Source of the DNA: Gekko japonicus
Lineage: Eukaryota
Assembly: GCF_001447785.1 (NCBI RefSeq)
Contig: NW_015165268.1
Location: 532,688-596,687 of the forward strand
Direction: 5' to 3'
DNA: 64,000 nucleotides
Below, in pieces: positions 5,590 to 64,000 of this stretch (its first letter is position 1; every line of letters begins with the position of its first letter). The notes beneath the pieces were generated by a model. It did not search any database and had not been told where the DNA came from. It saw nothing but the letters and a program-made list of their open reading frames with translations. The position numbers and the translations under genes were made by a program.

Positions 5590-5960
5590 AATTAAAATTA
5601 ATCTTCTTTTAGACACACCATCAGAAGAAGACTTAATTTATAAAGTACTGGAGATAGCAGAAATGGACAACCTAATTATATTACTTCAAGGAAGAAACGA
5701 GAATATCTTTAAACATATTTGGTCAAGATTTTACAACTGGATAGAGAACGTAGTTAATCATGACCTGTGAATCATAAACTATAAATGATAAAATAGTTCT
5801 AATTCCATATATATTATTTGCGGCTAATATTGGAGAAGATATTTGTCCAAGCGGCAACATTGTGGGATGGAATTCTGTTTATGTTTGTACATATGTTTAT
5901 GTTTGTTTAGGTATTTTGTTGTGTTATTATTTGTTTGAAATTTAAAATGATCATAATAAT
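5590..5960 (+). mobile_element. L1 ORF2 extreme 3' fragment plus AT-rich 3'UTR
   Basis: KVLEIAEMDNL...FKHIWSRFYNWIE is homologous to KILEIAEMDKL...FENTWSRFYKWFE at 54575-54856. Confidence 0.8.
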
Positions 5961-7054
5961 AAGATCTAAATCAGCAAGGAGAACAAAAAAAAATCCTCTT
6001 TTGGTTTTGTCTCAATGCAGAAAAAGAAATGTTACAGTACCAGGCTATCCTATATATTATTGATATTAGGTTTTTACATTTTATAGCTCTGTACCACACA
6101 CACATGGAGACATACACAAATATTACTTAGCTTGCTCATTTCAGTGAAAAGGGATACTGCTTGCTAATGGAAAGGGGTGAACTTTTGTAACCCTCTGACA
6201 AGAACAACAAGTTAGAAAATACAAATGTTATCTGAACCATCTGAAACTGCAGAAACTTCTTCTGTTTGATTGGCTAATGTGCATTTGCCTTAAAAATTAT
6301 CTACAAGGAAACTGTGTAGTAGTTGAGCTCCTGACACAAGGATGGTGGTCACTTGCCGGAATTAAACTAATACCATTCCTTTACACATTTATAGTGCCTT
6401 ATCATGCTCAGCCATCACAAAGTACTTTTCAATATACCATTAAAGCTGTAGGTTAATCCATTTTGCAGAGTGCTTGTATAGTTCAGATCTGATAAAATCT
6501 CCTGGACTAAAGTCATCCTTAAAATAACCTACCTGAATGAATCCAGTTACAGAAAGGATGAACTTGGTCAGCTCCTTATGCCGTGTCCTAAAACAATATT
6601 TTTTTAAAGGAATGAATATGTGGTGAGAAATAATGGTTTGGCTTTGACAACTTGTCTGTTTGCAGTTATTTTCACCACATGGCTTGCAGTCAGGATTAGC
6701 TATTTCTTCAAGACATCTGTTACTACATCAATTTTAACTTAGTGCAAAATCACTGAAATCAAACGTTCACAGGTTTGTGTGTGAGATGATAAAAATGAAT
6801 ATATTTTGCTATCAGCAAAAAGAAAAACTTGATCCAAGTAGCTTTATCTTAAGATTGAGAATCATCCCTTCCAACAAAGGAATATAATTATAGCTCCATG
6901 CTTATTAGGATATTTGGCATCAATAACTGCATTAACCACACTACAGATAAAATGTTGGGATGCCATTTCAAGGATTTATTTTTATATTACACCTGGTGTA
7001 TGGTTCTGCAAAATACAAATCAAACTAAATAAAAATTTGCACTGTTCTAAGATA

Positions 7055-10750: not shown

Positions 10751-11697
10751 AAATGTACCAGATATACCATATAGCAAAATTATGACTGAAGCTGTGATCT
10801 GTAATGCATGTACTCCTGAGAGAACCCTATAAGATTATGTATTCCAGTTTATAAAGTAAAAGACTTCTCCTCAAGAGCAGTTTCTTTTTATTGGCTTATA
10901 GGTCATTGAGATCAGCCTGATTTTCCCAGGTAATCAGCCCAAATGAGTGATTTGATTTCACACATTCCTTACATGATGAATGCAATTTTAAGTGATGACT
11001 CTGAAACACTCATCACACATCAGACAACACAGATATTCATATCACCCCCGAAGACTGTAAAGCCATGGTTGTCACTGGAAGTAATTTGTACCTATAGCCA
11101 TAAGTCATCCCATGAGAGACATAGCACGGGTTGGGTCTTGTGATGAACATGTGTGAACCAGTATGTGATACATATGGACAGCATGTGTAAGGTCAGTATG
11201 GTGCAGTGGTTTGTGTGTTGAAGACCCAGTTTTGAATCCCTACTCTGCCATGGAAGTTCACTGGATGATCTTCAGCCAGTCATAAATAATAAAACAAAAC
11301 AAAATAATAAAACAAAACAAAAAATAAACTGTCAAACTAATATACATTGTTATGAGGGAAAAAATAGAAAAGGAGCGAAAGATTTTGTAAGCCTCTTTAA
11401 GTCCACATTAAGTCCACATTAAGGAGAAAAGAAGAGTGTAAAGAAGGATTTGTAAAGAAGGATATTTTTTAAAAAATAATGGTCTCATATTTGGACAATC
11501 AAACAACAGGTTCATAGGGAGGATGTATATGTTGGATTATACTAACACAAAAATATTTGGAGGGAATCAGAATAAATCCAACACAATAGGAACTGATCTC
11601 AGAAGAGGAAAGAACTCAAAAATGAAAGAGTTGCTGCAAGAGTTGTCTGCAAGATCTAGCAAGGCTGTCAACAATAGGACATTTTGGAGGTCATTAA

Positions 11698-11994
11698 TAG
11701 GGATGGGAACAAACTGCAAAAATGTGGTTCAGTTCGTGGTTCATGGCTGAGCCACAACTCATGAACTGATACACTGGTTCACAAACTAAACTGGTTTTTA
11801 TCAGTCTGTGAGTAATTTAAAGTTTAAACCCCTGCTTTCTACTCCTGGCAGCTTTTTGCAGGGAGCAGAAAGCATGGGTTCCCAAACAGATGAGCGGTGG
11901 GATCACTGCTCAGCTGTTTTGTTTAAATGCCTCTGAGACATTTAAACCCTACTTTCTGCTCCCCGTGGCTGTTTTTCATGAAGAGCAGAAAGCA
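11698..11994. mobile_element. Left part of a hAT-like non-autonomous element (tagggatgggaac...), target of the ORF1-only insertion
   Basis: Same terminus as 57936-58755, with internal ctttctgctcc...gagcagaaag palindromes. Breaks off at 11994. Confidence 0.65.
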
Positions 11995-13590
11995 GACTTC
12001 TGGTCTACAGAACAGCAATGGCGGATGCTCTCCCCACAATGGGAAAGGGTGAATTGCACACCAGCGGCCTGGAGGAGTGCCACCTCAAGTGACACCCCCG
12101 TGGAGCCTTTGCGACGGGCTCTAGGCCAGAGGGCTTTTGAGGGGTAGCATCTTCGACGGCGTAATGCGAGAGAATTGAGGCTCCCCTCCGCCCCGATGGT
12201 CCAGTTGCTGAGTGGCCTTCAGGCACAAGCTGAACTGACCGGGACAAGCACCGGAGATTGAGCGGAATGGCGAACAACAGAGCGCGATCAGAAATTGACT
12301 GACAATGAACGTGAGTTCTGGAAAAACGGAGTAGTTTGAAAAGTGACCGCAAAGAGGGACGCCTCTTATGTGAATGAACGGATAATGGACACGAAAGGGG
12401 AGAGGGGAGGAAATAAAGCGAAAGTCAGAGTCCAAAACCAGAAGAGGGAGCAGATGTCTACAAACTCCTGGCAGATATGCTTAAGCCGGTGATGGAACAG
12501 CTCGATGGTATTAACCAGCAATTGACCGTAATGAATAAAAACTTTGCAGCACAGCAGCTTCAGCTGAATGAAACAGGGAAAAAAGTGGAGCAGGCAAACG
12601 AGAAAATTAAAGAGATAGACACCACAAGCAAGAAGTTGAAGAAAAGGTTGGGAGATGTGGAAATGAAGCAGAATTGCCAAGAGAATCGAGTTATGCAGCT
12701 GCAGATGGAAAAAGCCAACATGATTCTCAGGTTTCAGGGAGTTCCTGAAATGGATCGGGAAGACTTGAAGAAGGTGCTCAGTGAGATTATCGCTCCAGTA
12801 ATGAGCTTAACAGCGGAAGAGCTTGTAAACGAAATGGCGTTTGCCTATAGGGCATACTCCAATTACATTAATAAAAATAGTCTACCTGGAGAAATAGTGG
12901 TCAGGTTTTCAAGAAGACAAACTAGAGATGCCATTCTGAAAGCAACATCAGCAACTCCACTGAAAATGGGAAATGTAACCATTAAAACTTTAAAAGACAT
13001 TCCATTTGAAATCAGACAAAAGAGGAAAAATTACAGGGACTTAATTTCTTTTCTTCAAAGTAATGGAATTTCGTACAGATGGGCGGTCCCAGAGGGTGTC
13101 ATCTTTAAGATCAACGATAGAAGAGAGAAGATAGATTCCACTTTTAAAGCTAAAGAATTTTTAAAACGTCAGCTGGGGACAGATGATGAGTCCAAAGTAG
13201 GAGAATCGGTCTAGTGACTCTGCTACCTCGGGAATGGAAGAGGATTCTGCGGCAGAAAAGGGTGCAGGACCTGCCAGAGTGGTATACGATATTAGAGACA
13301 GAAAGCCGAAGTAAAGGCAGAAGGACTTGGAAAAGGGCCTTTTGAAGCGAAGAATAAGTAGATGATCAGAGACTTCTCTCATAACAACTAACAAAATAAC
13401 ATATAAATAGCGAATTGTTATAAGCAAGAATTCTACAAATATATTGTGATAGTAAAACTAATTGTACTAACATTTTTACTAACAGTGAAAAGATCTCCTC
13501 CTCTTGGGGTTTTAGTTTAGTGTGGTTTAATTTAGTTTCCTTTATCCTTAGTTGTAGTCCCTTCCCTAATATTTCTTTGTAGTTTTGGTA
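11995..13590 (+). mobile_element. ORF1-only L1-derived retroelement (half-L1/HAL1-like), copy A
   Basis: CpG-rich 5'UTR starting gacttctgg...caatggcgg (YY1-like), ORF1 at 12477-13214, then a short AT-rich 3'UTR resembling that of copy B. No ORF2. The 3' end abuts a Sauria SINE and no TSD is visible. Confidence 0.75.
12477..13214 (+). CDS. L1 ORF1p-like RNA-binding protein (coiled coil, RRM, C-terminal domain), transposon-encoded; open core with probable frameshifts at both ends
   Basis: Heptad-rich N-terminus, LRFQGVPE RRM start, PGEIVVRF, DIPFEIRQKR, YRWAVPEG. An acidic/basic tail continues in another frame to TAA at 13312-13314. Out-of-frame ATG at 12385. Confidence 0.85.
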   Translation: MLKPVMEQLDGINQQLTVMNKNFAAQQLQLNETGKKVEQANEKIKEIDTTSKKLKKRLGDVEMKQNCQENRVMQLQMEKANMILRFQGVPEMDREDLKKVLSEIIAPVMSLTAEELVNEMAFAYRAYSNYINKNSLPGEIVVRFSRRQTRDAILKATSATPLKMGNVTIKTLKDIPFEIRQKRKNYRDLISFLQSNGISYRWAVPEGVIFKINDRREKIDSTFKAKEFLKRQLGTDDESKVGESV

Positions 13591-13591
13591 A

Positions 13592-13913
13592 GTAAAGGTA
13601 AAGGTTTCCTTGCTCGAAAGCCAGTCGAATCGGACTCTAGGGTTGTGGTGCTCATCTCCATTTCAAAGCCGAAGAGCCAGCAATGTCCGAAGATGTTTCC
13701 GTGGTCATGTGGCCGGCATGACTAAACACCAAGGTGCACGGAACGCTGTTACCTTCCCACTGAAGTGGTCCCTATTTATTGCTTTTGAACTGCTTTCGAA
13801 CTGCTAGGTTGGCAGGAGCTGGAACTAGAGACGGGGGCTCACTCCATCATGTGGCAACTCAGGTCTCAAACTGCTGAACTACCGACTTTCCACAGCCTGC
13901 AGTTCAGCATCTT
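13592..13913 (-). mobile_element. Sauria SINE
   Basis: (ACCTTT)n tail seen as aaaggtaaaggt. Diagnostic body ggtcatgtggccggcatgactaa...gctgttaccttccc...ctgctttcgaactgctaggttggcaggagctg. Confidence 0.93.
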
Positions 13914-14449
13914 AAATAAGGGATTGCAGGTATTGCTAAAGGAAGAGTGGGAGGTTGCAAAGGCATTGAATGAAAATGTTCACTTCTTTTTATTTTGGAA
14001 AATATCTGCTGTTTTGGAGAATGCAGCCAGAAGAAGTCAAATATAAGTGATAACAGATTAAATTTTAGGGAGAACAATCAAATTTTAAAAATATCAAAAT
14101 GCAATCCTAAATAGAGTTACAGCCTTCTAAAACTATTGCTTTCAACAGCAATCTTACTGATCGCCCATCAAGCCTGAAAGTAAAAGTGTTGCTGCTGAAT
14201 GCCAGTCCAGTTCAAAACAAAGCATCCCTCATCCAGGACTTAATACTGAGTGGGGAGGCTGACCTGCTATGTATCACAGTGATCTGAGTGGGTGAAGAGG
14301 GAGAGGTGGCTCTCTTACACGTTTGTGTTCCCTCCCCCTATGCATCATCACCCTCGGCTTGCTGGGGTGGCGGTGGCTGTAGTTTATTGGGATTCTGTGG
14401 CACTCACCAAATGCTTTGTTAGCAATAGCCCAAATTTTCATTCTATGTC

Positions 14450-16085
14450 CCTTATGTTGGGGCCTTGGGACAGAACAGAGATTCTATTGGTGTATGACCC
14501 ACAACCATGAAATCCCTGGGAGAGGTCATCTGTGAATTTGGAGTGAGGTGTCGCCAGTATGTACATAATACCCAGCAGAATTTCTCCTTAACAGCTAAGC
14601 AAGGTGGGTCTATGGAAGTCTGGAACAGATGCCTGGAGAAGGAAATGGGATAGATGATGGCCAATAAACTGAAGCTCAGGCTTGACAAGACTGAGGTGCT
14701 GCTGGTCAATAGAGAAGCAGCTTGGGGATTACAGAGTTAGCCTGACCTGGAGAGGGTGCATAGCTTAGGGGTGCTACTGGATCCTGGCCTACAGTTGGAG
14801 GCTTGGGTCTCCTCTGTAGCATATAGCACCTTGCATCAGCTCCAGCTGGGTTGCCAGCTACAGCCATTCCTTGAAAAGCATGATCTGGCCACAGTAATCC
14901 ATGCTCTGATCACATCCAGGTTAGATTACTATAATGTGCTCTAGCCTCGGTCACACAGAGCATTTGCCGTGCTAAAGAGACAGATGATAGGCGGATTTTC
15001 TGGGCACGATCACACTGCAACATCTAGGAAGCGTAGTGCTCCCGTGGCTAACCTGTGGCTTCCTGCCGAAGATGCGGCTTAAAAAACTAGTACCTATGAG
15101 GTACTAGTTTCTGAACAATGCGGGGCAAGGGCGGGCATCTGATCACATCCCGTCCTAGTCCCGTCCTAGTCCCGTCGCAAACCGGTTACTTTTTTTTTCA
15201 GTCTGCACAGGATGTGCACAAACGATCATGGGCATGTGCATCTTCTGGTGAAAAAAAAATTCCCGATTGCCACGGAAGCGGCGCCTAGTGATTGCTGGTG
15301 TGATTGCACCGTGCCGCTTCTTTGCCATGCTGCAGGATAGTTGTATGATTGGCACCTCCCCCCTAACCACAGGACCTCGATGGGACGTCTGATCGGGCAG
15401 CTGCGCGTTATTTTGCTCCGGGGCAAACAGCCATGCTCCCCCCCCCCGCATTTTCCAGCCGGTGTGACCGGAGCCATAGTTCTGCTTTTGAAAATGGTCT
15501 AAAAATTTCTGTTGGTCAAAAATGTGGCATCCAGGCGATTGTCAGGGAATTGTCATAGGGAATGCATCACCCCTGTGCTGAAAGATCTGCACTGGCTACC
15601 CATCTGTTTCTGGGCACAATTCAGAGTGCTTCTTCTTTTAAGGTCCTAAATGGCTTGGGGATAGGGTCCACCTCCTCCCATATTATTGAACCCACCAGTT
15701 AAGATCTGTCTCTTGATCTCTACTCTTTGTGCTCCTGCCTTCAGAGGTGAGGTAGGTAGTGACAAGAGACCAGGCATTTTCTGTGGTGGCACCTCACCTT
15801 TGGAACACCCTCCCCCTTGAGGCTTGCCTGGCACCTATTTTTACTTTTTTTTAAGGATCCAGGCCAAACATCGTTTTACCCAGGCTTTTAATTAGGGGTT
15901 ATTATCTTATTGGCTTGTTAATGATCATCTACTGTTTTATGGATAGTTGTTATATTGCTTCTGTACAATGACTTGTTTTGAATGGCTTGATTTTAGAGGC
16001 TTGTTTTTGATATTGTAGTTATTTTGACTGTAAGCTGCCTTGAGCAGAACCCTGAAGAGGGGCATAAAAATAAGTACATAAACAA
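14450..16085 (+). mobile_element. Degenerate L2 LINE split by a MITE
   Basis: SLGVLLDPGLQLEA...DLATVIHALITSRLDYYNVL before 14943. The ITPVLKDLHWLPICFWAQFRVL region resumes after 15475. Typical L2 tail at about 16030-16085. Confidence 0.88.
14943..15475. mobile_element. PIF/Harbinger-type MITE, CpG-rich
   Basis: TIR cggtcacac / gtgtgaccgg. Inverted homologue of 58791-59332. Confidence 0.8.
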
Positions 16086-18962: not shown

Positions 18963-19560
18963 AAGAACATGAGAACATAAGAGAAGCCATGTTGGAACAG
19001 GCCAATGGCTCATCCAGTCCAACACTCCGTGTCATACAGTGGTCAAAACCCAGGTGACATCAGGAGGTCCACCAGTGGGACACAAATTCCAGAAGCCCTC
19101 CCATTGTGCCCTCCCAAGCACCAAGTATACAGAGCACCACTGCCCCAGACATACTGTTCCATCTATACATTGTGGCTAATAGCCAATGATGGACCTCTGT
19201 TCCATATGTTTATCCAGTCCCCTCTTGAAGGCTGCTATGTTTGTAGCTGCTACCACCTCCTGCGGAAGTGAATGCCATGTGTTAATTACTCTTTGGGTTA
19301 AGAAGTGCTTCCTTTTATCTGTTCTAAACCTACTGCACATCAATTTCACTGAGTGCCCACAAGTTCTTGTATTGTGAGAAAGCGAAAAAAGTACTTCTTT
19401 CTCTGCCTTCTCTATCCCATGCATAATTTTGTAAACTTCTATCATGTCACCCCTCAGTTGTCACTTCTCCAAGCTAAAAAGCCCTAACCTTTTTAACCTT
19501 TCTCCATAGGTAAAGCGTTCCATCCTCTTAATCATTTTAGTTGCCCTTTTTGCACCTTTT
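18963..19560 (-). mobile_element. CR1 LINE 3' fragment
   Basis: MIEVYKIMHGIEK...TRTCGHSVKL...FLTQRVINTWHSLPQEVV, with the CR1 3' end ttcttgct/ttctcatgttct. Confidence 0.95.
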
Positions 19561-23059: not shown

Positions 23060-24401
23060 ATATTGATGTAAAGAAGTAAGCCCTCTTGGAAAGCAAGAGC
23101 TAGACTCTGTTTAGGTTCACTTTCTCCTCTCTTCTCTTCTGACATTTTAATGTGGAACCAACTTCTCTATGTTGGTCTCAGCAGGCCAAATAAACAAGTT
23201 TCGGGCCTGCTCCTAACCACCTGCATTTGTGCAGCAGCTTAAATTCCCATCTACTTTAATGTCACATGAATCCTGTCCTTGCCTTTTGAATACTTTTGGA
23301 TCATTAGCTTCCTGGATCCTTGGATCCCTGCCTGGGGAACTGGACCTTTGCCAAACCTGCATGGATATCTTAGTATAGCCTTTGTTTTACCCTTCTACTG
23401 TACCCCTTTGACCTCTTACTTCCCCCTTCTTAAATATGTTCCACAGTGTGTGTTATTGCTTAGAATATTTGGTGTTTAATGTGGGCTATCTAGGTTCAGG
23501 CCCCCACTATTACCAACAAGCCAGCCAGCAGTTCTAACATCTGGCCTCCACCACTGTGCTCAGGAAGACCATTGAGTGGCAAACTGTTTGGCTGTAAGGT
23601 ATTTCCAGCATGCCATCTTATGGACCCAATGTATCAGCACTAGCACTTTATGAGTCTATGTTTTTACTGTATTTGAAATTTTAAATGGATTTTATGTGAA
23701 TTGAATGGTCATTTGTAGACCAACTACGTAAGCTGCCCTGAGTCTGCTTGCGGGGAGGGTGGGGTATAAATTGAATAAATAGATTAAAAAATAGATAAAA
23801 TCACTTTGATTGCTTGAGTTTCTAATTTTTTCAGACTATGTCTTTGTATTATCCCTTTCAATATATTACATTTCTGATTTCACTGTATCTTACTTGTCAG
23901 TGCTCCATCCAAACTTGTACAGGAACCTTGCCACTTTGTCAACATATCCCTTGAGGTCAATTGCTGCCTAGAGTTCATTTGGAGGGTGGTTCCTTTAAAC
24001 TGGGTGTAGAGACTAATCCAGAGGCTCCTTTAGCACAGGAATGAAAGGCAGGAGGGTTTGGGGGGTTTTCCCTGTCTTCTCTGGCTATTTTAGCATATCT
24101 TAGAGTTGAATTGGAAACTGAATACACCACATTCACACATACATGCATCTAATGTACAGGTGTCTTCCTGAGCCCACCTGATAACAGAATTGTCAGCCTC
24201 AGTCTTAGGGTTCTGAGAGCCTTGACTACCATTTCAGAAACCAAGGCAAAGCCTTGTATTGATTATGTGTAGCTGCAAATGAACCCATGCTCTCAAACTT
24301 GAAATGAAACCATAGCCTTCTAAGCACGCTGTTCTTCTTTTGGGCTTTTTCTTTAGTACTGACATCCATGATGCCATCTTTTCACAATTATGCTGCTCAT
24401 T

Positions 24402-24600
24402 ACACTGAACGACTACTGATGTGGACCTACAGATGATACTAGAGTATCACAAAGTAAGTTTCCTTAATGTCTGTTCATATGGTCTCACTCTGAGTTAAGA
24501 ACTCATTTTAGTTCCCTTTCCCTCAATGGAATTTCAATTAAGCCACACCTTTTAAGACTACTAAACTGCTTTAAATCAATAGCACAGTGAGACTCCATTT
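24402..24600 (+). repeat. 199-bp direct repeat, copy 1
   Basis: Identical to 25405-25603 except one c/t difference. Confidence 0.97.
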
Positions 24601-25404
24601 ATTCCCGAATACTGTTTCAACCTTTATTTAGCTTCATGAGTCATTACATAGGTTTGGTGCAGCGTCTCCCGTTGAAAATGTACAACTATTGATTTCTGTG
24701 TTTTTATCTAGCTAAGGATTCTCTTCAAGTGTCAAGAGAACTAAAAACATGCCAAATGTTTTTTTCTTCCTTCATTTTTATTTTTGATGTGATATATGTG
24801 CTTCTTTGGATAGATTACTTTATATTCAATTCTTTAATACAATTGAAGACAGGATGCATTAATCATACCCATCCAACCCATAGCTCCGTGGTTATAGCTT
24901 TGAGGTTTCAGAGCAGTAAGCAGCAGCCATTATCTTTAATGTCCAAACAGATTTATTCAACTGGCTAGTGAAAAGTTACAGTCATTAAGCTTGTTTTCTT
25001 TGGAATCAAAAGCTAATCCTGTTAGCTATTATGTCTCCATAGAGGACTGGAGCAACATAAATACTCAATATGCAAGAGTATTTCAGTATTTCTCTCAACC
25101 TGTTTTGGTATCCTTTAGGTTTGCTCTTCCAAATAAACTTGCCCATGGAAGTGGCCAAGTTTTGAAGGATCCACTGATTTTAATGAAACTCAGGAGGACT
25201 TAACATTGTCCAAATGTCCCTCATAGTACCCAAATTAAGATTATCATATACAGCTTGTGTTTTCAAAGGCCTTGTGACTACCACTACAACTTTAATTTTG
25301 TGAGGGTGAAAAATGCATGTGCTTTAAACAAACATTCCAATGTTCAGAATCAAACCAAATGTATGAATTGTCTGAAACTGAGTTTTTGATCACCACTTTG
25401 GATG

Positions 25405-25603
25405 ACACTGAATGACTACTGATGTGGACCTACAGATGATACTAGAGTATCACAAAGTAAGTTTCCTTAATGTCTGTTCATATGGTCTCACTCTGAGTTA
25501 AGAACTCATTTTAGTTCCCTTTCCCTCAATGGAATTTCAATTAAGCCACACCTTTTAAGACTACTAAACTGCTTTAAATCAATAGCACAGTGAGACTCCA
25601 TTT
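25405..25603 (+). repeat. 199-bp direct repeat, copy 2
   Basis: Offset 1003 bp from copy 1. Flanked by gatg on both sides. Confidence 0.97.
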
Positions 25604-33619: not shown

Positions 33620-34104
33620 ACTATGAAGGAGCAAGAAAAGATCCTTTAGTGTAAGGATGTGCCACTGGTGACCAAGATCAAGATAATTCATACTATAGTA
33701 TTCCCCATTACTATATATGGGTATGAAAATTGGACAATGAAGAAAGCAGACAGGAAGAAAGTTGTTCCCTTTGGGATGTGGTGTTGGAGAATAGTTTTAC
33801 TCATACCATGGACCATCAAAAAGACAAATAAGTGGGTTCAAGATCAAATCACCCCTGAACTCTCTCTAGAAACAAAACCAACCAAACTGAGGTTATTGTA
33901 CTTTATTCATATCATGAGAGAACAAGACTCATTGGAAAAGAAAATAATGGTAGGAAAAGTTGAAGGCAGCAGGAAAAAGGGAAGACCCAATGTGAGATGG
34001 ACTGACTCAATCAAGGAAGCCATGGCCTTCAATTTACAAGATCTGAGCACAGCTGTTAATGACAAGATGTTTCAGAGGTCATTAATTCATAGGGTCACCA
34101 TAAG
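33620..34104 (+). mobile_element. RTE (BovB-related) ORF 3' fragment
   Basis: TKIKIIHTIVFPITIYGYENWTMKKADRKK...MWCWR...GKVEGSRKKGRPNVRWTDSIKE. Confidence 0.93.
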
Positions 34105-35094
34105 GGTGTTCTGTTGTGCTCTGTGAAGAACTAAGTTTTCTTTTTGTTTTTATTATCTGCTATCTGCTCTTTTGGACCTAATGGTTTAGATTTTGGCTTT
34201 GTTTAGTTTCAAGTCAGCTGTCTTGGCAGGCCCAAGCTTCTTTTCTTTTTGGAACATTTTTTTCTATGTCCATAGATAAGATGCTGGGGTTCTGGCTGAA
34301 CTAAGAACAGTGCTGTGGCTGTCCTCCACTGCCCAGAGAGTTTCATCTTATTTTTAGTTTTATTATCTCTGCCAGGTGTTTTGCTGGCTGGTAGCTATAT
34401 TGTTAAGAAGGGAGTTAGTTATAGGCACTTGCTGTTTTGGCTCCCTAAATTCTTCTTAAAGTAGACTTCAATTAAGGCTGACACCAATGCAAACGTCAAA
34501 GTCTCTTGCTTAGAGAGCTGGCTATAAAGCCGGAGGGGGGGGGTAAATTCTGCCTTGTACAAGAGATACTTTTCCTTTGTATTCCTCCCCTTTAAGCGAA
34601 GAGTTTAACCTTTATTTCCTCTTTTTAAGTTCTTAAGCCATAGTTTTAAAGTTTTAATTTATGTTTTTAAGGCTGAATTACTACCCCTGTGGCTAGTTAA
34701 AAAGCTGATCAATGACTTGCTGATTAATGACTTGCTAGGGTGTTGTCTCAAGCAGGCTGGGAAACTCTTGAAAGCAGTGTGGGTCAGTGATGATAGTGTA
34801 GAACTGACGCTACACCCTCAGGCTTGCTGCTGCAATAACTATTTTATAACAATTTTATAATAATTCTATAACAATTTTAACAAACAAAAAATAACATACA
34901 AGACCAACTTGGTCAAATTTGGTTCCCTCAGTTTTTGTCCTTTCCTAGTACCACCATTATTACTACACAAGTGGAGACCCGCAAGAAACATGCGGGATGG
35001 TTATCCTATTCCTCACGCCTTTGCTTCCTCCTGTCTCCCCCTACCTCTCTCAAACTCTTTCTCCCTTCTGCCCCCCCTATCTTTCTCTCTCTCC

Positions 35095-39725: not shown

Positions 39726-40954
39726 GACTTGGGAAGCAGAGGCAAGAACAGGAGCCACCTCCAAAAGGTATGGTTAATCTCCTCCCCTCTCTGCACCTGC
39801 TTTATTGGCTGGCCCTGGTGTACCAGCTGAAGCCACAAATGACTAAGCAGTTATGCACCACCTAGATCCCCACACCCAATGTCAATATAAAGCAAATGGA
39901 TTCAGACTGGTGGAAATGGACTGTGGGGTTGACATATCCATTGTAGATGGATCACCTGCATTGGGAAAGTGGTGTACCAAGACTGGCATGGTGAAATCAG
40001 TATGATGTTATAGAAGGTGTATTTCAGTTGGCAGAGAGTCCAAGGGTAATCTGTATGGACGTGTAACAGGCTTAAAAGTTTACTATAGGAAGGAGACTAA
40101 AGGGTGAGATAAGGGTAGCACCTAAACCCACTTACCTCTCTTTTTTTTAATTCCCCAGCCTGGTGGGAAAGAGCCTCACATAGCAACTGTCCCATCCCAT
40201 GATGAACACTGTAATAATATTACCAATATTTAGTGATTCCACTGCACTGGAAACTAAACATGATCCAAGCCATTAGAATCAATGCCTTTCCAGTGAATGA
40301 AGGTCATTTTCAAATTAAACAAAGGCTCCTATTGGGCCAAGGACTGTAACAGTAAATATTCAGGTAGCACAACTAAATGCAAAGTTTTTGGGGGAGGTAT
40401 TGTAGCAGGAGCACCTGAAATGCAGGACTTGGCTGATGAATTGTAAATTCAGAGGTAATAGCTGGGCAAAAATAAAATGAATTATACAAAGGTATGTAGG
40501 CTGAAAAGGTGATTTAGCTAAATTGAGACTAAAACTTGACAGAACCAAGTCTGGTTAGTATTAGAAGGCAAAACATCAAAGAAGTTAAGAATATGTGGTC
40601 AAACTGGCCAAAGTTCAGAAGTTAATTCCTAGGGACCCTCTGCATGAATAAATGCTTTAATGTAGACATGAAAGTAAGAGTATCTTGGAGAAGATATGAT
40701 CTTTTAATATATATAACTTTTTATTGCATTTTATATACTACATCCTAAAGGAAGGGGGGGAAAGGGGAGTGATTAAAACTAACACAAAAGATAAGACAAG
40801 GATCGTATTTCAAATGTCACCTAGTTGTATATCAATCCTACCACAATAACAAAGATTGTTTTATCAAAAGGTTAAATTCTAAATAAAGCTGGCTTGAATC
40901 TTAATACTAGACTTAGGTGTTTAATAATCACTTATGTTCTATTGAACTATCCAT

Positions 40955-42582
40955 TTATTTTTTATGTTTCTTCTTCTTGTACTTCAGGTTTAACATCTTT
41001 GGGCCTCTCCTTGGAGGAGTTAGCTTTCTCCTCTGAAGTGTATATTTTTAATACAATCAAACAGAGGCTTTTAGATATTGAGTTTCAAAAACTGCAGCCC
41101 TTTCATCCCCCTGTCTGCTCTTCAGCTTCATTAAGTCTTAAGAATGACGTGGGATGTATTCCCCAGTATTTGTATAATTTGGATAGCCCTAGCCATCGAA
41201 GAGCTTTTTCCCTTGCTCGAGTAAATGCCTTTCCATCAAAACTACTGTATGGTAGGTTTCATAATATTCCTAAGTATGAACGGAGATGTGACTGTGGTTC
41301 AAGCTCTCTTGATTCAATTGATCACATACTGCTGGACTGTTCATTGCATGTATCTGCTAGGGAAAAATGGTTAAACTCTTGGTTGCATGGTAAATATCAC
41401 CTTTCTAATGAAAGAAAATGTCAAATTCTATTGAATGATACAACAGCAGAGATTACAGTGGCAGTGGCTAATTTTTTAGTTGATGTGATAAGAGTGAAAA
41501 ATTTGGGAAACTCCGTTTCATGATTTTATAATTATTCCAGTTTTTTAGTTGACTGTGTCACTTTCTGTTTCTGATTTTAATGTTGTATATGCTATTAAAG
41601 GTTTATTGATTGATTGATTGTACTTCAGGTTAGTTCTAAGTATTTTAGGTGCAGCATCCCCTTTCTCCGAATCTGAGGTTTCCGAAGTACTTCTAGAGCT
41701 TCTTGAGGTGTCATCTGGTTCTCCATCACTAGTTCCCTCCTCTTCCATGTTATCCACAATTTTTTTGCCATCATTACTCGGGCTTTGTTGCTGTTTCAAA
41801 AAGTCTTTTGCTTTTTGCACAGAGTCAATTTTGTTCTTCTTATCCTTATAGTTGAATACCAGTCCCTCTGGAAAAATCCAACTAAAGGGGATTGAATTGT
41901 TGTGGAGAAAGAAGGTTAAATCCTTGTATTGTCGCCTTCGCTTCCGCATCTCGAATGGAATGACCTTTAGAATTTTTACTTCATCGTCTTTGACCTTCAA
42001 GACTTTTCCAGATGTAGCTTTCAAAAAGTTGTCTCTAGTGGATCTCTTAGAGAATTTCACGTATATTTCTCCAGGCAGATTATTTTTCTTAATAAAATCT
42101 GGATATGTTCGATATGTCAAATCTAAATCATTTTTCAACACATCTTTTTAAATGTCTGTCATTGGTGTTAGCACTTCACTTAAAATTATTTTCAGATTTT
42201 TTCCTTTTTGCTCAGGAATACCTTGAAAGTGTAAGACATACATTGATCTTTCCATTTGAAGTTGTAGGAATTGGTCTTTATCTGCAGCACTCTCTTTTTC
42301 CACTTCCTCCAATTTTTGTTCAATGTTTTTGGGTTTTGTTTCAACTTTCTTGATGGCTCTGTCGGTTTTGTCTGCTCTTTTATCCATCTGTGTGAATTGC
42401 TTTTGGACACCATCCAGCTTACTGTTAATGTTAGACATCTGCTCCAGCAGGGGGTGCAGTGCCATGGCCAGCATATTGGGAAAGTCAGCAACTGCTTCCT
42501 GTGTCTGGGTGGGAGTTGTTGGTATGGTGTTTCCTGTGAGAGGTTTCCTTTCCAGCACCATTCTTATCCCTCTACCAGACAT
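40955..42582 (-). pseudogene. L1 ORF1p-like ORF of copy B (about 328 codons reconstructed)
   Basis: ORFs 42148-42582 and 41545-42141 are in one frame, separated by a single TAA. Removing the nested insert restores the C-terminus ...KILRTNLKYKKKKHKK* (stop at 40955-40957). Confidence 0.88.
40991..41617 (+). mobile_element. 5'-truncated RTE-X-like LINE nested in copy B
   Basis: 14-bp TSD ttgtacttcaggtt (40977-40990, 41618-41631). Open frame with RRAFSLAR...GRF...ERRCDCG...HILLDC zinc-knuckle C-terminus. Ends attaaagg plus (attg)n tail. Confidence 0.88.
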
Positions 42583-43556
42583 TGTTTACACAAGAAGAAA
42601 GTGTTTGGATTTAAAGTCAAAGTTCTACAATTTAAATATGCTTTGGATTAATTTGCACCTTTCAGTCTCGTTTACAGTCTCACACGGTTCGTTCCGCTTA
42701 TTCTCTTTTCTTTTTCATTCAAAGACCATTCAGTTTTTTGGGGGATATCCCCAGTTCTCCCCCACCCGCTGCTTATTTCATGAGCTAGCCATTGGATTTA
42801 GAGATTTAGCCATTTATATAGGGGATTGCTTAACTCACTGTTTTCATGTTTGAGTAATTGTAGTAGAGTGGTCACATTAGATCACTCGTCCGCTTGTCGG
42901 GCAGCAAGCTCTTATTGCCAAAATGGCTTCACAGCAGCAGGATCTCTCGGGGTAGGGAGAGCCTCAATCCCTCAGCTGTCACCATGGGAGAGGCTCTCCT
43001 TTGCACCCTGGGCTGGAAGTTCCCTACAAGGACTCCGGAGGGGCGTATCTGGGCGGAGCCCCTCCTGTCTGTCACAACTCAGCGCGTCTCCTTCAGGAGC
43101 TCAGTGGGACGTGTCCGAGCTTCAAGTTGCCAAAACTGGAACTCTGAGAAGATATGATCTAAACAGAAGCAGAAGAGTCAGCTATAGGGACAAGGTGTAA
43201 TTGAACTTCTGACCTACTCATTGATAACTGCAGGGATATTTGCTTAAAATATGGTCCGTCTAGACATGGAAGTCAAAGCAGTTAGAGTGGGATAAGGGCA
43301 GAGAGATACCCTACCAAGAAATGTCTCAAACACATTATAACATTACAAGGAAGCACTGTATCAGCTTCCTCCTTGCCAACCCTTAGATCACTTATGAGTG
43401 AGGTAATAGGACATGTTTTGTACACTTTTACTTGATTTGCTTTTGTTAGTGTAGTGTACTACTGTGCTTCATAAATGTATTTGACTCGTAAACATGTCCT
43501 GCATGGTTAAATGTGTCATGCCTTCAGTAGAATCCTGAAAATAACCAGTAACATTA

Positions 43557-46729: not shown

Positions 46730-47007
46730 CTGTGGCGACCTCAGCAGGGTATAATGACACAGAGTCCACCATTTTCTCCAGAGGAACTCATCTCTGCTAC
46801 CTGAAGAGCAGTTGTAATTTCCTGAGTGATCTCCAGCCCTCACTTGGATATTGGCAACAATTGTTACCCAGGAAGAAATGACTGGTTTGGAGGGTGGAGT
46901 CTATGGCATTGTACCTGTCTGAGGTCCCACCCCTCCTCAAACCTCACCCTCTTCAGGCTCCATCCCTCAAATCTCCAGAATTTCCCAATCTGGAGTTGGC
47001 AACCCTA
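46730..47007. mobile_element. 'tagggttgcc' family non-autonomous transposon
   Basis: ggagggtggagtctatggcatt...ttggcaacccta. Confidence 0.75.
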
Positions 47008-47307
47008 TCTCCTTCCCAGCCAAGCATCAATCTGCCATTTTTGGCCCCTCTGATTTTAGCTTTGCATCTCCTCCCCCCTCCCTCCTGGAGATCAGTTGTA
47101 ATTCTGAATGATTTCCACCCCTCTCCTGAGATTGACAACAGTGGTTCCCCAGAAGGTCACATGGAAGGTTTTGGCCCAGGAGAGGGACGGATTGGGGGAG
47201 CAGCAAATGGGCACGAGCACACCAGTCTGATCCAGCTGAGCCTGCGGATTGGGCACAGTGCAAAATGTCTCCACAAGTGGTTGCAAAAAAATGCTGTATT
47301 TCTGCCC

Positions 47308-48205
47308 TCGCAGTGGGGGGTGGTAAGCAGTGGGGTATCACAGGGATCAGTACTTGGTCCACTGCTTTTTAACTTCTTCATTAATTATTTGGAGTTGGGA
47401 GTAAGCAGTGAAGTGGCTAAATTTGCGGATAATACGAAGTTGTTCAGGGTGGTGAAAACCAGTGAGGATTGTGAGGCACTCCAAAGGGATCTGTCAAGGA
47501 TGGGAAAGTGGGCGTCAACATGGCAAATGGGGCTCAATGTGGCCAAGTGCAAGGTGATGCACATTGGAGCCAAAAATCCTCAATATAAATACACATTGAT
47601 GGGGTCTGAACTGGCAGAGACTGATCAAGAGAGAGATCTTGGAGTTGTAGTAGATAACTCACTGAAAATGTCGAGACAGTGTGTGACTGCAATAAAAAAG
47701 GCCAATGCTATACTGGGGATTATTAGGAAGGGTGTTGAAAACAGATCAGCCAATATCATAATGCCCCTATATAAAGAGGTACTTTTCTCCCTTTCTCACA
47801 ATATAAGAACTCATGGGCACTCAATGAAATTGCTGAGCAGTCGGGTTAGAACAGATAAAAGGAAGTACTTCTTCACCCAAAGAGTGATTAACACATGGAA
47901 TTCACTGCCACAGGAAGTGGTGGCGGCTACAAGCATGGACGGCATCAAAAGGGAATTAGATAAGCATATGGAGTAGAGGTCCATCAGTGGCTATTAGCCA
48001 CAAGGTATAGCTAGGGGCTCTGGGGCAAGTGATGCTCTGTCTTCTTGGTGCTTGGGGGGGGTCAACAGTGGGTGGGCTTCTAGTGTCCTGGCCCCACTGG
48101 TGGACCTCCTGATGGTACCTGGTATTTCTGGCTACTGTGTGACACAGGGTGTTGGACTGGATGGGCCTTTGGCCTGATCCAACATTGGCATCTCTTATGT
48201 TCTTA
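47308..48205 (+). mobile_element. CR1 LINE RT/3' fragment with internal deletion
   Basis: SGVSQGSVLGPLLFNFFIN...KFADNTKL...KCKVMHIG...ERDLGV. Jumps from MPLYK directly to EVLFSLSHN. 3'UTR matches 18963-19190. Confidence 0.95.
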
Positions 48206-54084: not shown

Positions 54085-54960
54085 CTATCAACTTGGTGGA
54101 ATCAGATTTTATGGACAAGATATAAACTGACCAATGGATAAACAACTCCCAAGATTTACAAAAACAAAAATCAGAGATGGATAAGATATTGATGTATGCT
54201 GATGAGAAACCTATTAAGAAACTTTATACATTGCTTTTAGAAAATAACACCCAAGATAAGTGGCTAAAGATGTTATGATAAAGTGGGCACAAAATCTGCG
54301 TCATACTATTGAGTTAGACCAATGGTCACAGATGTGGGGGGGAAATGTAAAAATCACTATAGCAATTTCATATAAGGAAAATATGTATAATATATTTTAA
54401 AGATGGTATATTACGCCTGATAAACTGGCCAAATTTGACCCTAAATGTTCAAATGTATGTTGGAAGTGTCAAAATAATGTGGGATCCTTTTATCATATGT
54501 GGTGGTTATGTGATAAAGCAAAAAAAAAATACTGGGCCTGGATTCACGAAATTTTACAAAAAATGTAAAAATGCTTGGTACCCTTTGTCCCAGAAATATT
54601 TCAGTTGAATATTTTACCTGAAAATTGTAAAAGAAATTACTCTTGTCTTATATTGTATTTGACTACAGCTGCTAGAATACTCTGTGCCAAATATTGGAGA
54701 AGAACAGAAACACCTTTGAGAGAAGAAAATTTAAGCAAAATTTTGGAAATAGCGGAAATGGACAAACTAACTTTAATTTTGAAAGGACAACTAGAAACTA
54801 CATTTGAAAATACATGGTCAAGATTTTATAAGTGGTTTGAAGACTATACTAAGTAAAATATAGACAAAAATGTGTTAAGGACATACAAAGTTAAAATTGG
54901 ATATATTTGCAACTGATATTCTTAATGATATAAGGTAAAATATACAAATGTATGACAATT
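54085..54960 (+). mobile_element. L1 ORF2 3' fragment (C-terminal zinc finger), degenerate
   Basis: RWYITPDKLAKF...NVCWKCQNNVGSFYHMWWLCDK and YLTTAARILCAKYWR. Confidence 0.92.
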
Positions 54961-57935: not shown

Positions 57936-58755
57936 TAGGGATGGACATGAACTGGGAAAATGGTAATTTGTTGGGGTTCATAGTTCGTTTGATTAAATGA
58001 ATCATGAACCACGATTATACAAACCTTTTCTCTTTCCTGAGCCAGTTTGGGTTTTTTATGTTTGTGAGTTTGGTAGGTGGTATAATTTAAAATGCTTTTG
58101 GAGCCCACCTCCGGGTTGGGTCGGCTGGACTGAGCTCCAAGAGTGAACTTCGAAGGCCTTTATAGGCCTTTGGAGATCACTCTAGGAGCTCAGTCGACTC
58201 CAGGGCCCCAACTTGACTGAGATCCCAGAGTGGGCTCTGAAGGCTTTTATAGGCCTTATATGGGCAGGCACCACCTGGAAGTGGGCTCTGAAGGCCTATA
58301 AAAGCTTTCAGGGCCCAATTTGTGGGCTCCAAAGGCCTATATAGGCCTTCACTCTTAGAGCTCAGTCAGGCCAGCCCGACCCAAAGGTGGGCTCCGAAAA
58401 TATTTAAATGTCTTTTGAACTCACTTCTGGTCAGAAGGCCTGACTCAAATGTAAGCTCTGAAGCATTTAAATGTTTTTGGAGCTTACTTGGGTGGGGCTG
58501 CGAGCTGGTGGTGGGCTCTGATGGTATTTAAATGCCTTCAGAACTCACGTCTTGGTGGCCCACCAGACCCAGAAGTAAGCTCTAAAAGCATTTAAATGTC
58601 TTTGGAGCCCAATAATGTGTCTCCCATGAACCTCACAAACTTCCACAAAAAACATGGAGGTTTGTGGGCAGATCATGGGAGCTTTGTTGTCCCAGACCCC
58701 TGGCTTGTGAACCATTAACCAGCCTGGTTCATTTGAGGGTTCATGCCCATCCCTA
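57936..58755. mobile_element. Non-autonomous hAT element (820 bp) with internal palindromic subrepeats
   Basis: TIR tagggatggacatgaac / gttcatgcccatcccta. Perfect 8-bp TSD gtctacaa (57928-57935, 58756-58763). Confidence 0.93.
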
Positions 58756-58790
58756 GTCTACAATTCTCTCTCAACTAGTAAGGCAACTAG

Positions 58791-59332
58791 GGCTCCGGTC
58801 ACAGGGCCAGGAAAATGCGGGGGGGGGGAAGCGTGGCTGTTTGCCCCGGGGCAAACTAACGCACGGTTAAGTGATCAGACCTCCCGTGGAGGTCCTGTGG
58901 AGGTACCGTGGAGGTTCCGTGGGTAGGGAGAGGTGCCGATCACAGGACTACCCTGCACGCAACGAAGAAGCGCGCGGTGCGGCAAACTGGTTTTCTTTTT
59001 TTTGTGTACACGACGGATGTGTATGCTCCGTTGGATGCGTGTGCTCATCCATGGAGACTTGGGAGGAAAAAAACCTTTTTTGCAAGGGAACATGGTCGGG
59101 CGCCGGATGCCACCGGAAATTGCAAGGGAACATGGTCGGGCACCGGATGCCACCGGAAACGCAATCAGATGTCCGCCCTTCCCCCGCAGTTTCCGCAGCG
59201 CATTTTCGCCGGGAAGCCTCGGTTGTGCCACGGAAGCGCTACACTTCCCAGATGTGCCGGTGAGATCGCGCCCGGAAAATCCGCCTGTCTTCCGTCTCTC
59301 TTGCATGGCTAATGTTCCGTGTGACCGCAGCC
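58791..59332. mobile_element. Young CpG-rich PIF/Harbinger-type MITE
   Basis: TIR ggctccggtcaca / tgtgaccgcagcc, 3-bp TSD tag/tag, internal 40-bp tandem duplication at 59081-59160. Confidence 0.9.
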
Positions 59333-59610
59333 TAGGTTTATCTCTTCACTTTCCTAGCCAGTTTGTTAGATCCAAAAATAAAGCTTTTTGTTACTCTCAA
59401 CCTGTTCGGTGTTCTAACAGCTACATAGGCACTATTACTTTTTTTGGGTCCTTGTGCAGTCTTGGCTGAATTGGAAAGTATGTGAAATCACACTGATAAA
59501 TATAGTTGCCAGGCAGTGGCTGGAACAGGTGAGAGGGCTGTTAAGGAGCAGCATCTCAGTAAAACAAGAAAGAAAAAAGAAAAAATGCTTCATCTACATA
59601 CAGAAATGTC

Positions 59611-61220: not shown

Positions 61221-62665
61221 TGTGATATTATAGAGATATGGGCTAATGCCATAGCAATTAAAAATTAACCAAGAAAGGCCTGCCCATTTATTCACTAGGG
61301 AAAAAAAATTAAAAAGAGAAGCTGTGAATGAACAAATTCCTTTTTCTTTCCTGTCCCCCTGTTCTCTCCCTCCATCTTTGCTCTCTTTTTCCTCTGTCTC
61401 CTCTCCCAACCTGGAATATTAATCTGCAGTCTGGGATTGAGGCATTTTTGGATGGTCAGGTAGACAGGATGGACAGTTGGAAAGATTCTCCTCCCTCTTC
61501 TCCATCATCTGTGGGGCTGATGTTAATGCCTTGGCTGTACCACCTGAGATTCACCTTAATAATGACAGCATTTCCCAGGGAGTATATTGAGGAGACATCT
61601 CAGAGTCATCTCAAAAAGAGAAACAGTGAATGAACAAATTCCTTTTTCTTTCCTGTTCCCCTATTCTCTCCCTCCATCTTTGCTCTCTTTTTCCTCTGTC
61701 TCCTCTCCCAACCTAGAATATTAATCTGCAGTCTGGGATTGAGGCATTTTTGGATGGTCAGGTAGACAGGATGGACAGTTGGAAAGATTCTCCTCCCTCT
61801 TCTCCATCATCTGTGGGGCTGATGTTAATGCCTTGGCTGTACCACCTGAGATTCACCTTTGACAATGACTGCATTTCCAAGGGAGTATATTGATGAGGCA
61901 TCTCAGAGACATCAGAAATAGCATCAGAGGTATCAGGGAAGGCAAAGGGGGGGGGAATGTATTATCTTTCCACCTGTTCTCAAGCCATCTGTGATAGACT
62001 GTCAAGAATTAATGCCCAACAGAGTCTGAGAACCTTTGAGTGACAAGCTGTTGAGAATTCTGCTGAGAAAGTCAGTTAAGGAATGACAGTTGGGGACTGA
62101 CAGTTGAAAAAGAGACAGCCAAGCACTGACGGTGGACTGGGAAGGAAGCTAAGAGAGTGAATGGATGAAAGAGGATCCTCATTCAAGCAAAAAAAGGGAA
62201 ATAGTTTCTAGTAAAGAAAAGTGATCCCTGCACATTTAGGAAGAGGAATAGCTTCTAAAAAAAGAGGACTGATGTCTGGTCTGTGTATAAAGAAGGATTT
62301 TGGGAACTTGGTTGTATCTTCCTGCCTTCTAAACTTTACATGCTGGTAAAACTCAGAAACCTATGTTTATGTGTTTAAGCAGAAACTAAGAAAACCTCTC
62401 TCCTCAAAGTTTTAAAGAGCTTGTTGAATAGCAGAAACACTTGTTGGCAACATATTATCTGGTGTTTGTGTGAATACAAAATTACCTCAGTTTTACTATC
62501 TGTTCACCTCATATATCCTACCCGATTTCACCTGACATTTTCTCTTCCAAGTTAAGTAAAATATTTTGTTTATTTTGAACTTTCAAAAGCCTTTCATGTG
62601 CCATTTCAAAAGCAAAATATAAGAAGGTGATTTTTATGTCTTCTCTCAGATCCTGGGGCTGAGTT
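61221..62665 (+). mobile_element. Possible long LTR containing the tandem duplication
   Basis: Starts tgtgata. Purine-rich gagaa/gacagtt R-like segment followed by a T-rich U5-like segment. No TSD seen. Confidence 0.35.
61311..61913 (+). repeat. Tandem duplication, two ~302-bp units
   Basis: gtgaatgaacaaattcc begins at 61324 and again at 61626. Units are near-identical except at their ends. Confidence 0.96.
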
Positions 62666-62689: not shown

Positions 62690-64000
62690 CTACCCACCCA
62701 CCAGTACGGGCTCAGATGTGAATAGGGCTTTGAGGTGGTCAAACATCTCCTGACATGCATTAGTCCAGTTCAGTTTAGCCCCGGGGCGGGTGCTTTCTGG
62801 CCCCTTCCCCTTAGCCTGAAACAAATCCGTGAGCAGTAAACTCACCTGGGTGAAGTTCGCGAAAAAGGACCGGTAGAAATTGGTGAACCCGAGGAATCGT
62901 TGGAGTTGCCTCCAGGTTTGAGGAGGTTCCCACCCCACAATATCCCGGACCTTGGCCAGATCCACCTCCAACCCCCTAGGGGAAATGTGGTATCCCAGAA
63001 AGTCTATCTCAGTACAATGGAAGTCACATTTCAACAGCTTGGAAAACAGTTTGTGCTTGTGTAATGTGTGCAGGACCTCCTGCACCAACTTCATGTGAGA
63101 AGGTTTATCAGGGGAATCTATCAACATATCATCTAGGTAAACAATGACACACTTGAACAAATGCTTGTGTAACACGTCATTGATCAGGTTCATGAGGACC
63201 CTTGGAGCCCCCTGAAGTCCGAAAGGTATCACTTGATACTCAAACTGTCCCAATGGGGTGTTAAACACCATCTTATACTCATCCCCTTCCTTTATACAGA
63301 CCCAGAAATAGGCATCCCTGAGGTCAAGCTTCGAGCTTGGCCGCTTTGGCCAGGAGATCCTTCATGAGGGGCAGGGGGTATGCATTAGTGGTAGACACTG
63401 CATTCAAGTCCCTATAGTCCGTACATAGCCTCAGTCCTCCATCTTTTTTTTTTCCTGGAACAATACAGGGGCAGCAAAAAGGGAGGACGCGGGATGAATG
63501 AAACCTCAAGCCAGGGTTTTGTCAATAAATTTATGCAATTCTTCCTTTTCCCATGGACTCATGGCGTACAGTTTCCCTTTAGGCAACTTCTGGCCCGGAA
63601 TCAACTTGATAGCACAATCTGAGTGTCTGTGAGGTGGCAATTCGTCCACCTCCTCTTCCTTAAACACCCGTGTCAGGTCCCGGTGCTCCAGGGGGATGGA
63701 AGTCAGCTCCTCCTTGGCTAGGCAAGCTTTCATCGGTTCATCGAGAGGGGGGGCCACAGCCCCTCCCATATGTGTGTTTGGCATTTAGGTGAAATAAACT
63801 TAATTACGCACTCATCCCATGGAATATAGGGGTCGTGGTCATGAAGCCACGGGCTGCCCAGCACTAGAGGGAAATGAGCTGCTGGAGTGATGTCAAAGGG
63901 CTGATGCTCCCAATGCACTCCTGCCCCCATCCATAAAGGCACAGTCTCATATTTACAAGAGTCTTTCATAGCTGACCCATCCATTTGGGTAAACACAATG
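62690..64000 (-). mobile_element. Ty3/Gypsy (sushi/chromovirus-like) pol fragment: protease end and RT, frameshifted
   Basis: [46 protein letters not shown]...YPLP, PFGLQGAP, VIVYLDDMLI, FLGFTNFYR. Truncated before RNase H. Continues beyond the window. Confidence 0.95.

Follow-up and report, generated by a model that had tools for sequence, protein, structure and literature searches.

Half-L1 (HAL1) elements were reportedly described from mammals by Smit in 1999 and by Bao and Jurka in 2010, the latter account being said to concern mammals only. The guinea pig HAL1 has been reported to have kept ORF1 coding capacity for 29–44 Myr (PMC3627910), and the concept of ORF1-only L1 derivatives with long retention of ORF1 is therefore not new, being already in print from mammals. 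A literature search for HAL1 in squamates, part of which was poorly targeted and brought up mostly unrelated work on reptiles and sharks, returned none, and the portion of PMC5203782 that was available makes no mention of HAL1.

The window (the whole 64-kb stretch of DNA that was analysed) carries one copy each of two related ORF1 elements, termed here copy A (11995–13592, + strand) and copy B (40703–43145, − strand). Its repeats point to squamate-like DNA, though not specifically to a gecko, and include a Sauria-type SINE, BovB-like and CR1-like fragments and an L1 ORF2 fragment near that of Varanus. Copy A is fairly likely to be a dead copy of a HAL1-type, non-autonomous squamate retrotransposon, distantly related to copy B, which is complete.

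Like mammalian HAL1, both copies are derived from L1, carry ORF1 only (likely in the case of A) and would depend on L1 ORF2p, and copy B shares with mammalian HAL1 an A-rich 3′ end and a target site duplication (TSD). They differ from it in their squamate host, in a 5′ end and ORF1p of the lizard clade-1 type, in being of independent origin, in synonymous sites that are saturated between A and B, and in the 3′ end of A, which is not visible. The clade-1 L1s of Anolis, compared by their published description (PMC5381506), resemble A and B in the 5′ terminal motif, in the coiled coil-RRM-CTD arrangement of ORF1p, in AT-rich 3′UTRs with T/C tracts and in the level of ORF1 divergence between families, but have an ORF2, which B lacks and A probably does, and 5′UTRs of 792–1,465 bp as against 390–563 bp. 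HeT-A (Jockey clade) and Ag-Sponge (CR1 clade) are likewise ORF1-encoding non-autonomous LINEs reported to be mobilised in trans (PMC5786205), but they belong to other LINE clades and other hosts and serve as an analogy only. L1TD1 and Lyosin exon L are also L1 ORF1-derived coding sequences under selection without ORF2; these, however, are fixed host genes or exons, whereas A and B are disabled insertions with marks of retrotransposition.

Structure of the two copies

Copy A was found inserted in a hAT-type MITE, of which the left arm (11698–11994, +; 297 bp) begins with TAGGGATGG, as does a complete MITE located at 57936–58755. The complete element is 820 bp long, has TAGGGATGG termini, is flanked by an 8-bp TSD and contains both direct and inverted repeats, and the host MITE of copy A is only distantly related to it. 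No right arm or terminus of the host MITE was found downstream of copy A, the similarity search there scoring at chance. The host MITE itself is situated at the end of the first of two BovB-like 3′ fragments (~11610–11698 and 33737–34126), and a search for the remainder of this first fragment downstream of copy A was also at chance.

The 5′UTR of copy A (11995–12384, +; 390 bp, 55% GC) starts with the letters GACTTCTGGTC and has an intact L1 5′ terminus, which alone in the window fits the pattern GACTTCCGGT(≤1 mismatch)-N6-16-ATGGCG and is near the lizard clade-1 consensus (PMC5381506). Judging from CpG retention in the 5′UTR (observed/expected ratio of 0.76 in A vs 0.51 in B), copy A looks younger than copy B, both being dead. 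The ORF1 of copy A (about 12385–13314, +) comprises a coiled coil, RRM, CTD and acidic-basic tail, with a profile match at 12420–13205 (iE 2e-85). The 245-aa ORF picked out in an earlier note on this DNA was confirmed as an ATG ORF at 12477–13214, and is the still-open central part of what was a longer ORF1, broken by a frameshift near its start, a stop at 12414–12416 and a second frameshift near 13200–13206, with the acidic/basic tail encoded in the shifted frame. Both the N- and C-terminal extensions of this ORF align to a database protein, P0001.

Coding sequence of the L1 ORF1p type was matched by profile in both copies. Because Pfam alone was weak (Transposase_22 scored 20.2 bits for copy A, below the cut-off of 22.4, and copy B gave no such match), the identification of ORF1p rests on PDB and fold searches. 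Human ORF1p chains, with about 20% identity to the protein of copy A, were the top four of seven PDB matches when the single sequence was used (E 4e-5) and the top four of 17 when a profile built from 40 sequences was used (E 1e-13). The AF2 model of the copy A protein (pLDDT 92.6) gave a Foldseek match to 2yko (E 6e-11). The protein of copy A is an L1 ORF1p, and its predicted fold matches that of human ORF1p.

Copy B is of HAL1-type architecture and ORF1-only. It is a complete element of 1,802 bp once a nested LINE is removed, and is flanked by a 15-bp TSD (43160–43146 and 40702–40688) whose only two occurrences in the window are these; the target site is TTT/AGA. A degenerate L1 5′ motif directly follows the TSD and opens a 5′UTR of 563 bp. 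ORF1 starts at 42582 and has one in-frame TAA at 42150, and the 3′UTR (40954–40703, 252 bp between the stop and the TSD) has an AATAAA near its end and a short A-rich tail. Copy B thus bears the hallmarks of TPRT, and scoring for ORF2 between its ORF1 and 3′ end remained at chance level. The nested insertion, a 5′-truncated LINE 3′ end of 627 bp (40991–41617, +), interrupts the final codons of ORF1 in antisense orientation and has a separate 14-bp TSD (41631–41618 and 40990–40977). It has a long open frame with a C-x-C...H-x4-C motif and an ATTG-repeat tail, and is perhaps RTE-X-like; no Pfam match was obtained for it. An apparent 345-aa ORF of copy B and an 842-bp 3′UTR were rejected as artefacts of this nested LINE.

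The truncated 3′ end of copy A

The 278 bp following ORF1 in copy A (13315–13592, +) are, by composition, a probable 3′UTR without its last part. The region is 32% GC and A-rich then T-rich, resembling in this the 3′UTR of copy B and an L1 3′UTR at 5760–5965; none of 2,550 background windows had as high an A-to-T skew, a statistic that was picked after seeing copy A. The likeness of the post-ORF1 regions of A and B proposed in the earlier note holds for composition only, as their alignment was at chance under each of the three scoring schemes, with scores as high in 321, 345 and 245 of 500 shuffles, and 3′UTR homology among A, B and L1 was at chance in all five pairs involving A or B. With regard to ORF2, the three frames of the 278 bp scored 21–35 against Varanus L1 ORF2p (shuffle means 29–36), in comparison to 171–201 for five 90-aa pieces of another L1 endonuclease, and none of 21 translated stretches had an endonuclease or RT match in Pfam.

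Copy A is abutted by a SINE (13593–~13915, −) that is antisense to it, and which, beyond its tail motif, we presume to belong to the Sauria family. Its flanks hold no convincing TSD, and the assignment draws on the 3′ (ACCTTT)n tail adjoining copy A, a motif described for such elements (PMC13295347). For copy A itself, no TSD was found among k-mers ending at 11985–12005, and AATAAA and poly-A are absent from the copy, whose end is deleted. Given that the right arm of the MITE is missing and that the SINE has no TSD, it is evident that a deletion at or beyond the 5′ side of the SINE removed the ends of both copy A and the MITE, and this deletion could have included ORF2. The caution voiced earlier, that the 3′ end of copy A is masked by a SINE and a deletion with no TSD visible, was confirmed.

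The reported target preference of these SINEs is for a T-run about 10 nt upstream on their own strand (PMC13295347), and an A-run is therefore predicted just past the break point of copy A. This would be in weak agreement, by analogy, with copy A ending near its break point. The position of the predicted A-run corresponds to the AATAAA region of copy B. A search of 11600–14100 against Rfam gave no accepted match, two sub-threshold matches being rejected.

Relationship of copies A and B

The core of ORF1p from QLQME to FLKxQ (A, 12696–13172; B, 42264–41788, −) aligned without gaps and with 77 of 159 residues identical (48.4%), which agrees with the gap-free core of about 160 aa at 45–50% identity counted by hand in the earlier note. 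The alignment scored 522, the best of 500 shuffles reaching 69, and BLASTP of A against B gave 41% over 239 aa (E 2e-66). That most of the differences are conservative was an overstatement, with 35 of 81 scoring above zero in BLOSUM62 and 53 of 81 scoring zero or more. The 5′UTRs are alignable as well, over about 180 bp of copy A (12073–12250), with 0, 0 and 4 of 500 shuffles scoring as high. The observation that in both copies a tail is followed directly by a short 3′UTR needs qualification, since the tail of A is frame-shifted and the adjacency in B applies only once the nested LINE is taken out. The acidic/basic tail was rejected as a marker of the lineage, being generic among ORF1 relatives: among the matches listed, an acidic stretch occurs in 55 of the 69 database relatives whose tails are at least 40 aa long, and 21 of the 69 tails are first acidic and then basic.

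Identity between A and B by codon position was 64, 73 and 36% (pN 0.31, pS 0.83). Nei-Gojobori dS was not estimable, 898 of 1,000 bootstraps being saturated. Codon models gave an omega below 0.08, of which only this upper limit is meaningful because the maximum likelihood fit has its branch length at the bound; omega = 0.08 was rejected under all three frequency models, and the likelihood-ratio test statistic against omega = 1 was 95–98. Comparison of the coding sequences thereby demonstrates purifying selection on the path between A and B, and the dN/dS check that had been suggested rejects neutrality. It cannot, however, discriminate one old ORF1-only lineage from two origins, because autonomous Anolis clade-1 families differ by as much in ORF1 (47.8–59.0%; PMC5381506 Table 1, without close pairs and L1_AC15) and HAL1s are reported to have arisen independently several times in mammals (PMC5753468). 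For the same reasons the selection may have acted in two autonomous parents, and neither saturated dS nor low omega gives the date of the selection or the timing of ORF2 loss. Purifying selection on ORF1p, as claimed in the earlier note, was thus upheld between A and B, whereas its step from divergence and low dN/dS to an old ORF1-only lineage with selection during trans-mobilisation is not valid alone.

A profile search with A and B identified 555 proteins at E ≤ 0.001; among the best 150 of the 555, 123 cover the core. The closest of those listed was P0001, with 53% core identity to A and 45% to B, the other full-core matches listed being at most 39% identical to A; of the database proteins, P0151 is from Varanus komodoensis and P0001 carries the source label 'lgn'. 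P0001 is an intact ORF1p of 305 aa on a single contig of 1,540 bp, near the 1.6 kb of copy A. This contig size is a weak hint of an ORF1-only element and may be due to chance, because short assembled contigs are common for repeats. P0001 may be a young representative of the ORF1-only group to which copy A would belong. A clade of A, B and P0001, with A sister to P0001, was recovered by FastTree (125 rows, support 0.96), by IQ-TREE (52 rows, 100/94) and by a mixture model applied to a subset of 25 rows (96/91). An endonuclease-like motif was found in 3 of the 150 listed matches, and the two of these that were examined (P0028 and P0066) carry ORF2 sequence. Both fall outside the clade, with 30% and 34% identity to A respectively, and are the only two rows of ORF2-linked ORF1s in the trees. 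The protein library was collapsed at 50% identity, is without genomic context and evidently holds few sequences of the A/B group. A word-based search gave 0 of 575 candidates at E ≤ 1e-5 with copy A and, with P0001, only itself among 2,624; these blanks are weak, because the query with A missed P0001. Neither A nor P0001 yielded any result in the ESM Atlas.

Loss of ORF2, probable in copy A, and proposed mobilisation in trans

The earlier note held that both copies lack ORF2, which is established for B and is likely for A, with no ORF2 in its 278 bp and its end deleted. As the 5′ end of A is clade-1-like and clade-1 spacers between ORF1 and ORF2 measure 0–110 bp, lengths known here for lizards from Anolis only (PMC5381506), ORF2 should already have begun within the 278 bp; none was found 0–110 bp past ORF1. 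Lizard clade-2 L1s start with GGGNGCTGCGCATGC and have a 5′UTR of ~230 bp and a G-rich spacer of 270–384 bp with ~46% GC (PMC5381506), unlike the GACTTCTGGTC start, 390-bp 5′UTR and 32% GC post-ORF1 region of copy A. The 5′UTRs of A (390 bp) and B (563 bp) are also far below the 792–1,465 bp of autonomous clade-1 elements. Both ORF1 matches in the window are 5′-intact and both ORF2 matches are short 3′ fragments; such a pattern would be expected if short elements were copied in their entirety while selection acted against full-length L1s, as reported in Anolis (PMC3787681).

It is conceivable, if unlikely, that copy A is instead what is left of an ordinary autonomous L1, namely its first 1.6 kb at the 5′ end, with the 278 bp as the inter-ORF spacer and ORF2 lost in the deletion associated with the SINE; only B would then be ORF1-only. 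Copy A has neither a 3′ end nor a TSD, a deletion is evident from the lost MITE arm and the SINE without TSD, and large deletions are reported to fragment lizard LINE copies (PMC3787681). Furthermore, a length of 278 bp would be accommodated by clade-2 spacers, the spacers of fish L1s are long and T-rich, and the post-ORF1 DNA of A and B is without homology. These points are countered by the clade-1-like 5′ end with its short spacers, by a post-ORF1 composition that is like 3′UTRs and unlike clade-2 spacers, by a 5′UTR as short as is seen in B, and by the nearest relatives of A being B and P0001 and not the ORF2-linked ORF1s.

If both copies are ORF1-only, a single ORF2 loss shared by A and B is somewhat favoured. 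The other course, a sub-case of the explanation preferred here, is that each became ORF1-only by a separate internal deletion in one of two autonomous L1 families, so that the divergence and low dN/dS between A and B were inherited from autonomous parents; we consider this the less likely of the two courses. A core identity of 48% is an ordinary distance between autonomous Anolis clade-1 families, repeated origin of HAL1 is known from mammals (PMC5753468), and the rat HAL1 is reported to be 98% identical to an active L1 (PMC2241872). Conservation of the 5′UTR extends across autonomous clade-1 families too (PMC5381506), the 3′UTRs of A and B are not alignable, and the protein libraries undersample the A/B clade, where even P0001 was missed by the word-based search. 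Against two origins, neither copy has an ORF2 remnant, both have ~250–280 bp after ORF1 and a shortened 5′UTR, and no ORF2-linked ORF1 falls inside the clade of A, B and P0001 (two such rows being in the trees). The tree and the alignable short 5′UTRs partially favour, as far as sequence comparison goes, a single lineage. Domestication of ORF1p as a host gene or exon, as with L1TD1 or the sauropsid Lyosin exon, is known in reptiles (PMC12129022) and P0001 is intact, but for A and B it is highly improbable and already contradicted, both copies being disabled (A by frameshifts and a stop, B by a stop and the nested LINE), with B having a TSD and polyadenylation signal and A lying inside a MITE.

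The fullest form of the single-lineage explanation, which we put forward tentatively, is that A, B and P0001 represent three subfamilies within a single ancient ORF1-only lineage of squamates, in which ORF2 was lost once and ORF1p was kept under strong purifying selection, with no autonomous partner having a related ORF1. Such a lineage would have lasted long enough to saturate synonymous sites, its divergence being as that of human vs dog/mouse L1 ORF1p (43–52%). If so, HAL1 would exist outside mammals and might be older than the 29–44 Myr of the guinea pig case. A single lineage spanning about 50% protein divergence would allow selection on the cis function of ORF1p to be separated from co-evolution with ORF2p, a separation that is difficult to achieve with autonomous L1s. 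It would also put ORF1p cis-preference to a natural test, and likewise the question of how an RNP made with the element's own ORF1p recruits ORF2p from a changing set of partner L1s with which it shares no 3′ end. In general, HAL1 in squamates would mean that the ORF1-only strategy does not depend on the single-lineage L1 regime of mammals. This strategy may be at an advantage where full-length copies of 6 kb are purged by selection and short ones are tolerated. ORF1-only elements would pass for truncated L1 in annotation and so be missed.

By analogy with L1 and HAL1, a source copy would be transcribed from an internal promoter in its 5′UTR, its ORF1p would coat its own RNA in cis, and the ORF2p of an autonomous L1 would reverse-transcribe this RNA at a T/A target. 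We infer such mobilisation in trans from the TSD and TTT/AGA target of copy B together with the literature, the same model having been proposed for HAL1 (PMC3627910, PMC2241872, PMC5786205). At 1.6–1.8 kb, the element would be copied full-length and tolerated more often than an L1 of ~6 kb. Copy A would afterwards have decayed, received the SINE close to its 3′ end and had that end removed by a deletion.

Two L1 3′ fragments are present in the window, one at 54162–54841 (+; 51% over 192 aa to Varanus komodoensis ORF2p) and the other at 5612–5965 (+; 36% over 45 aa to Varanus ORF2p). These belong to two autonomous families, which are candidate ORF2p donors. Their 3′UTRs gave no alignment with those of A or B, and neither fragment has a convincing TSD.

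A number of other repeats were identified in the window. A CR1-like RT ORF is located at 46903–47976 (+; Pfam RVT_1 E 2e-10), and an inverted pair of 3′ ends, 82% identical, occurs at 18972–19400 and 47773–48203. A 193-aa ORF at 62690–63271 (−), with an RT domain (RVT_1 E 9e-13) and a weak RNase H-like match, resembles an LTR-retrotransposon fragment. There is also a 202-bp direct duplication (24399–24600 and 25402–25603; 99%) with its copies 1 kb apart, a 302-bp tandem duplication (61311–61913; 95%), and two related inverted copies of a GC-rich repeat with short tandem units at 14940–15481 and 58785–59335.
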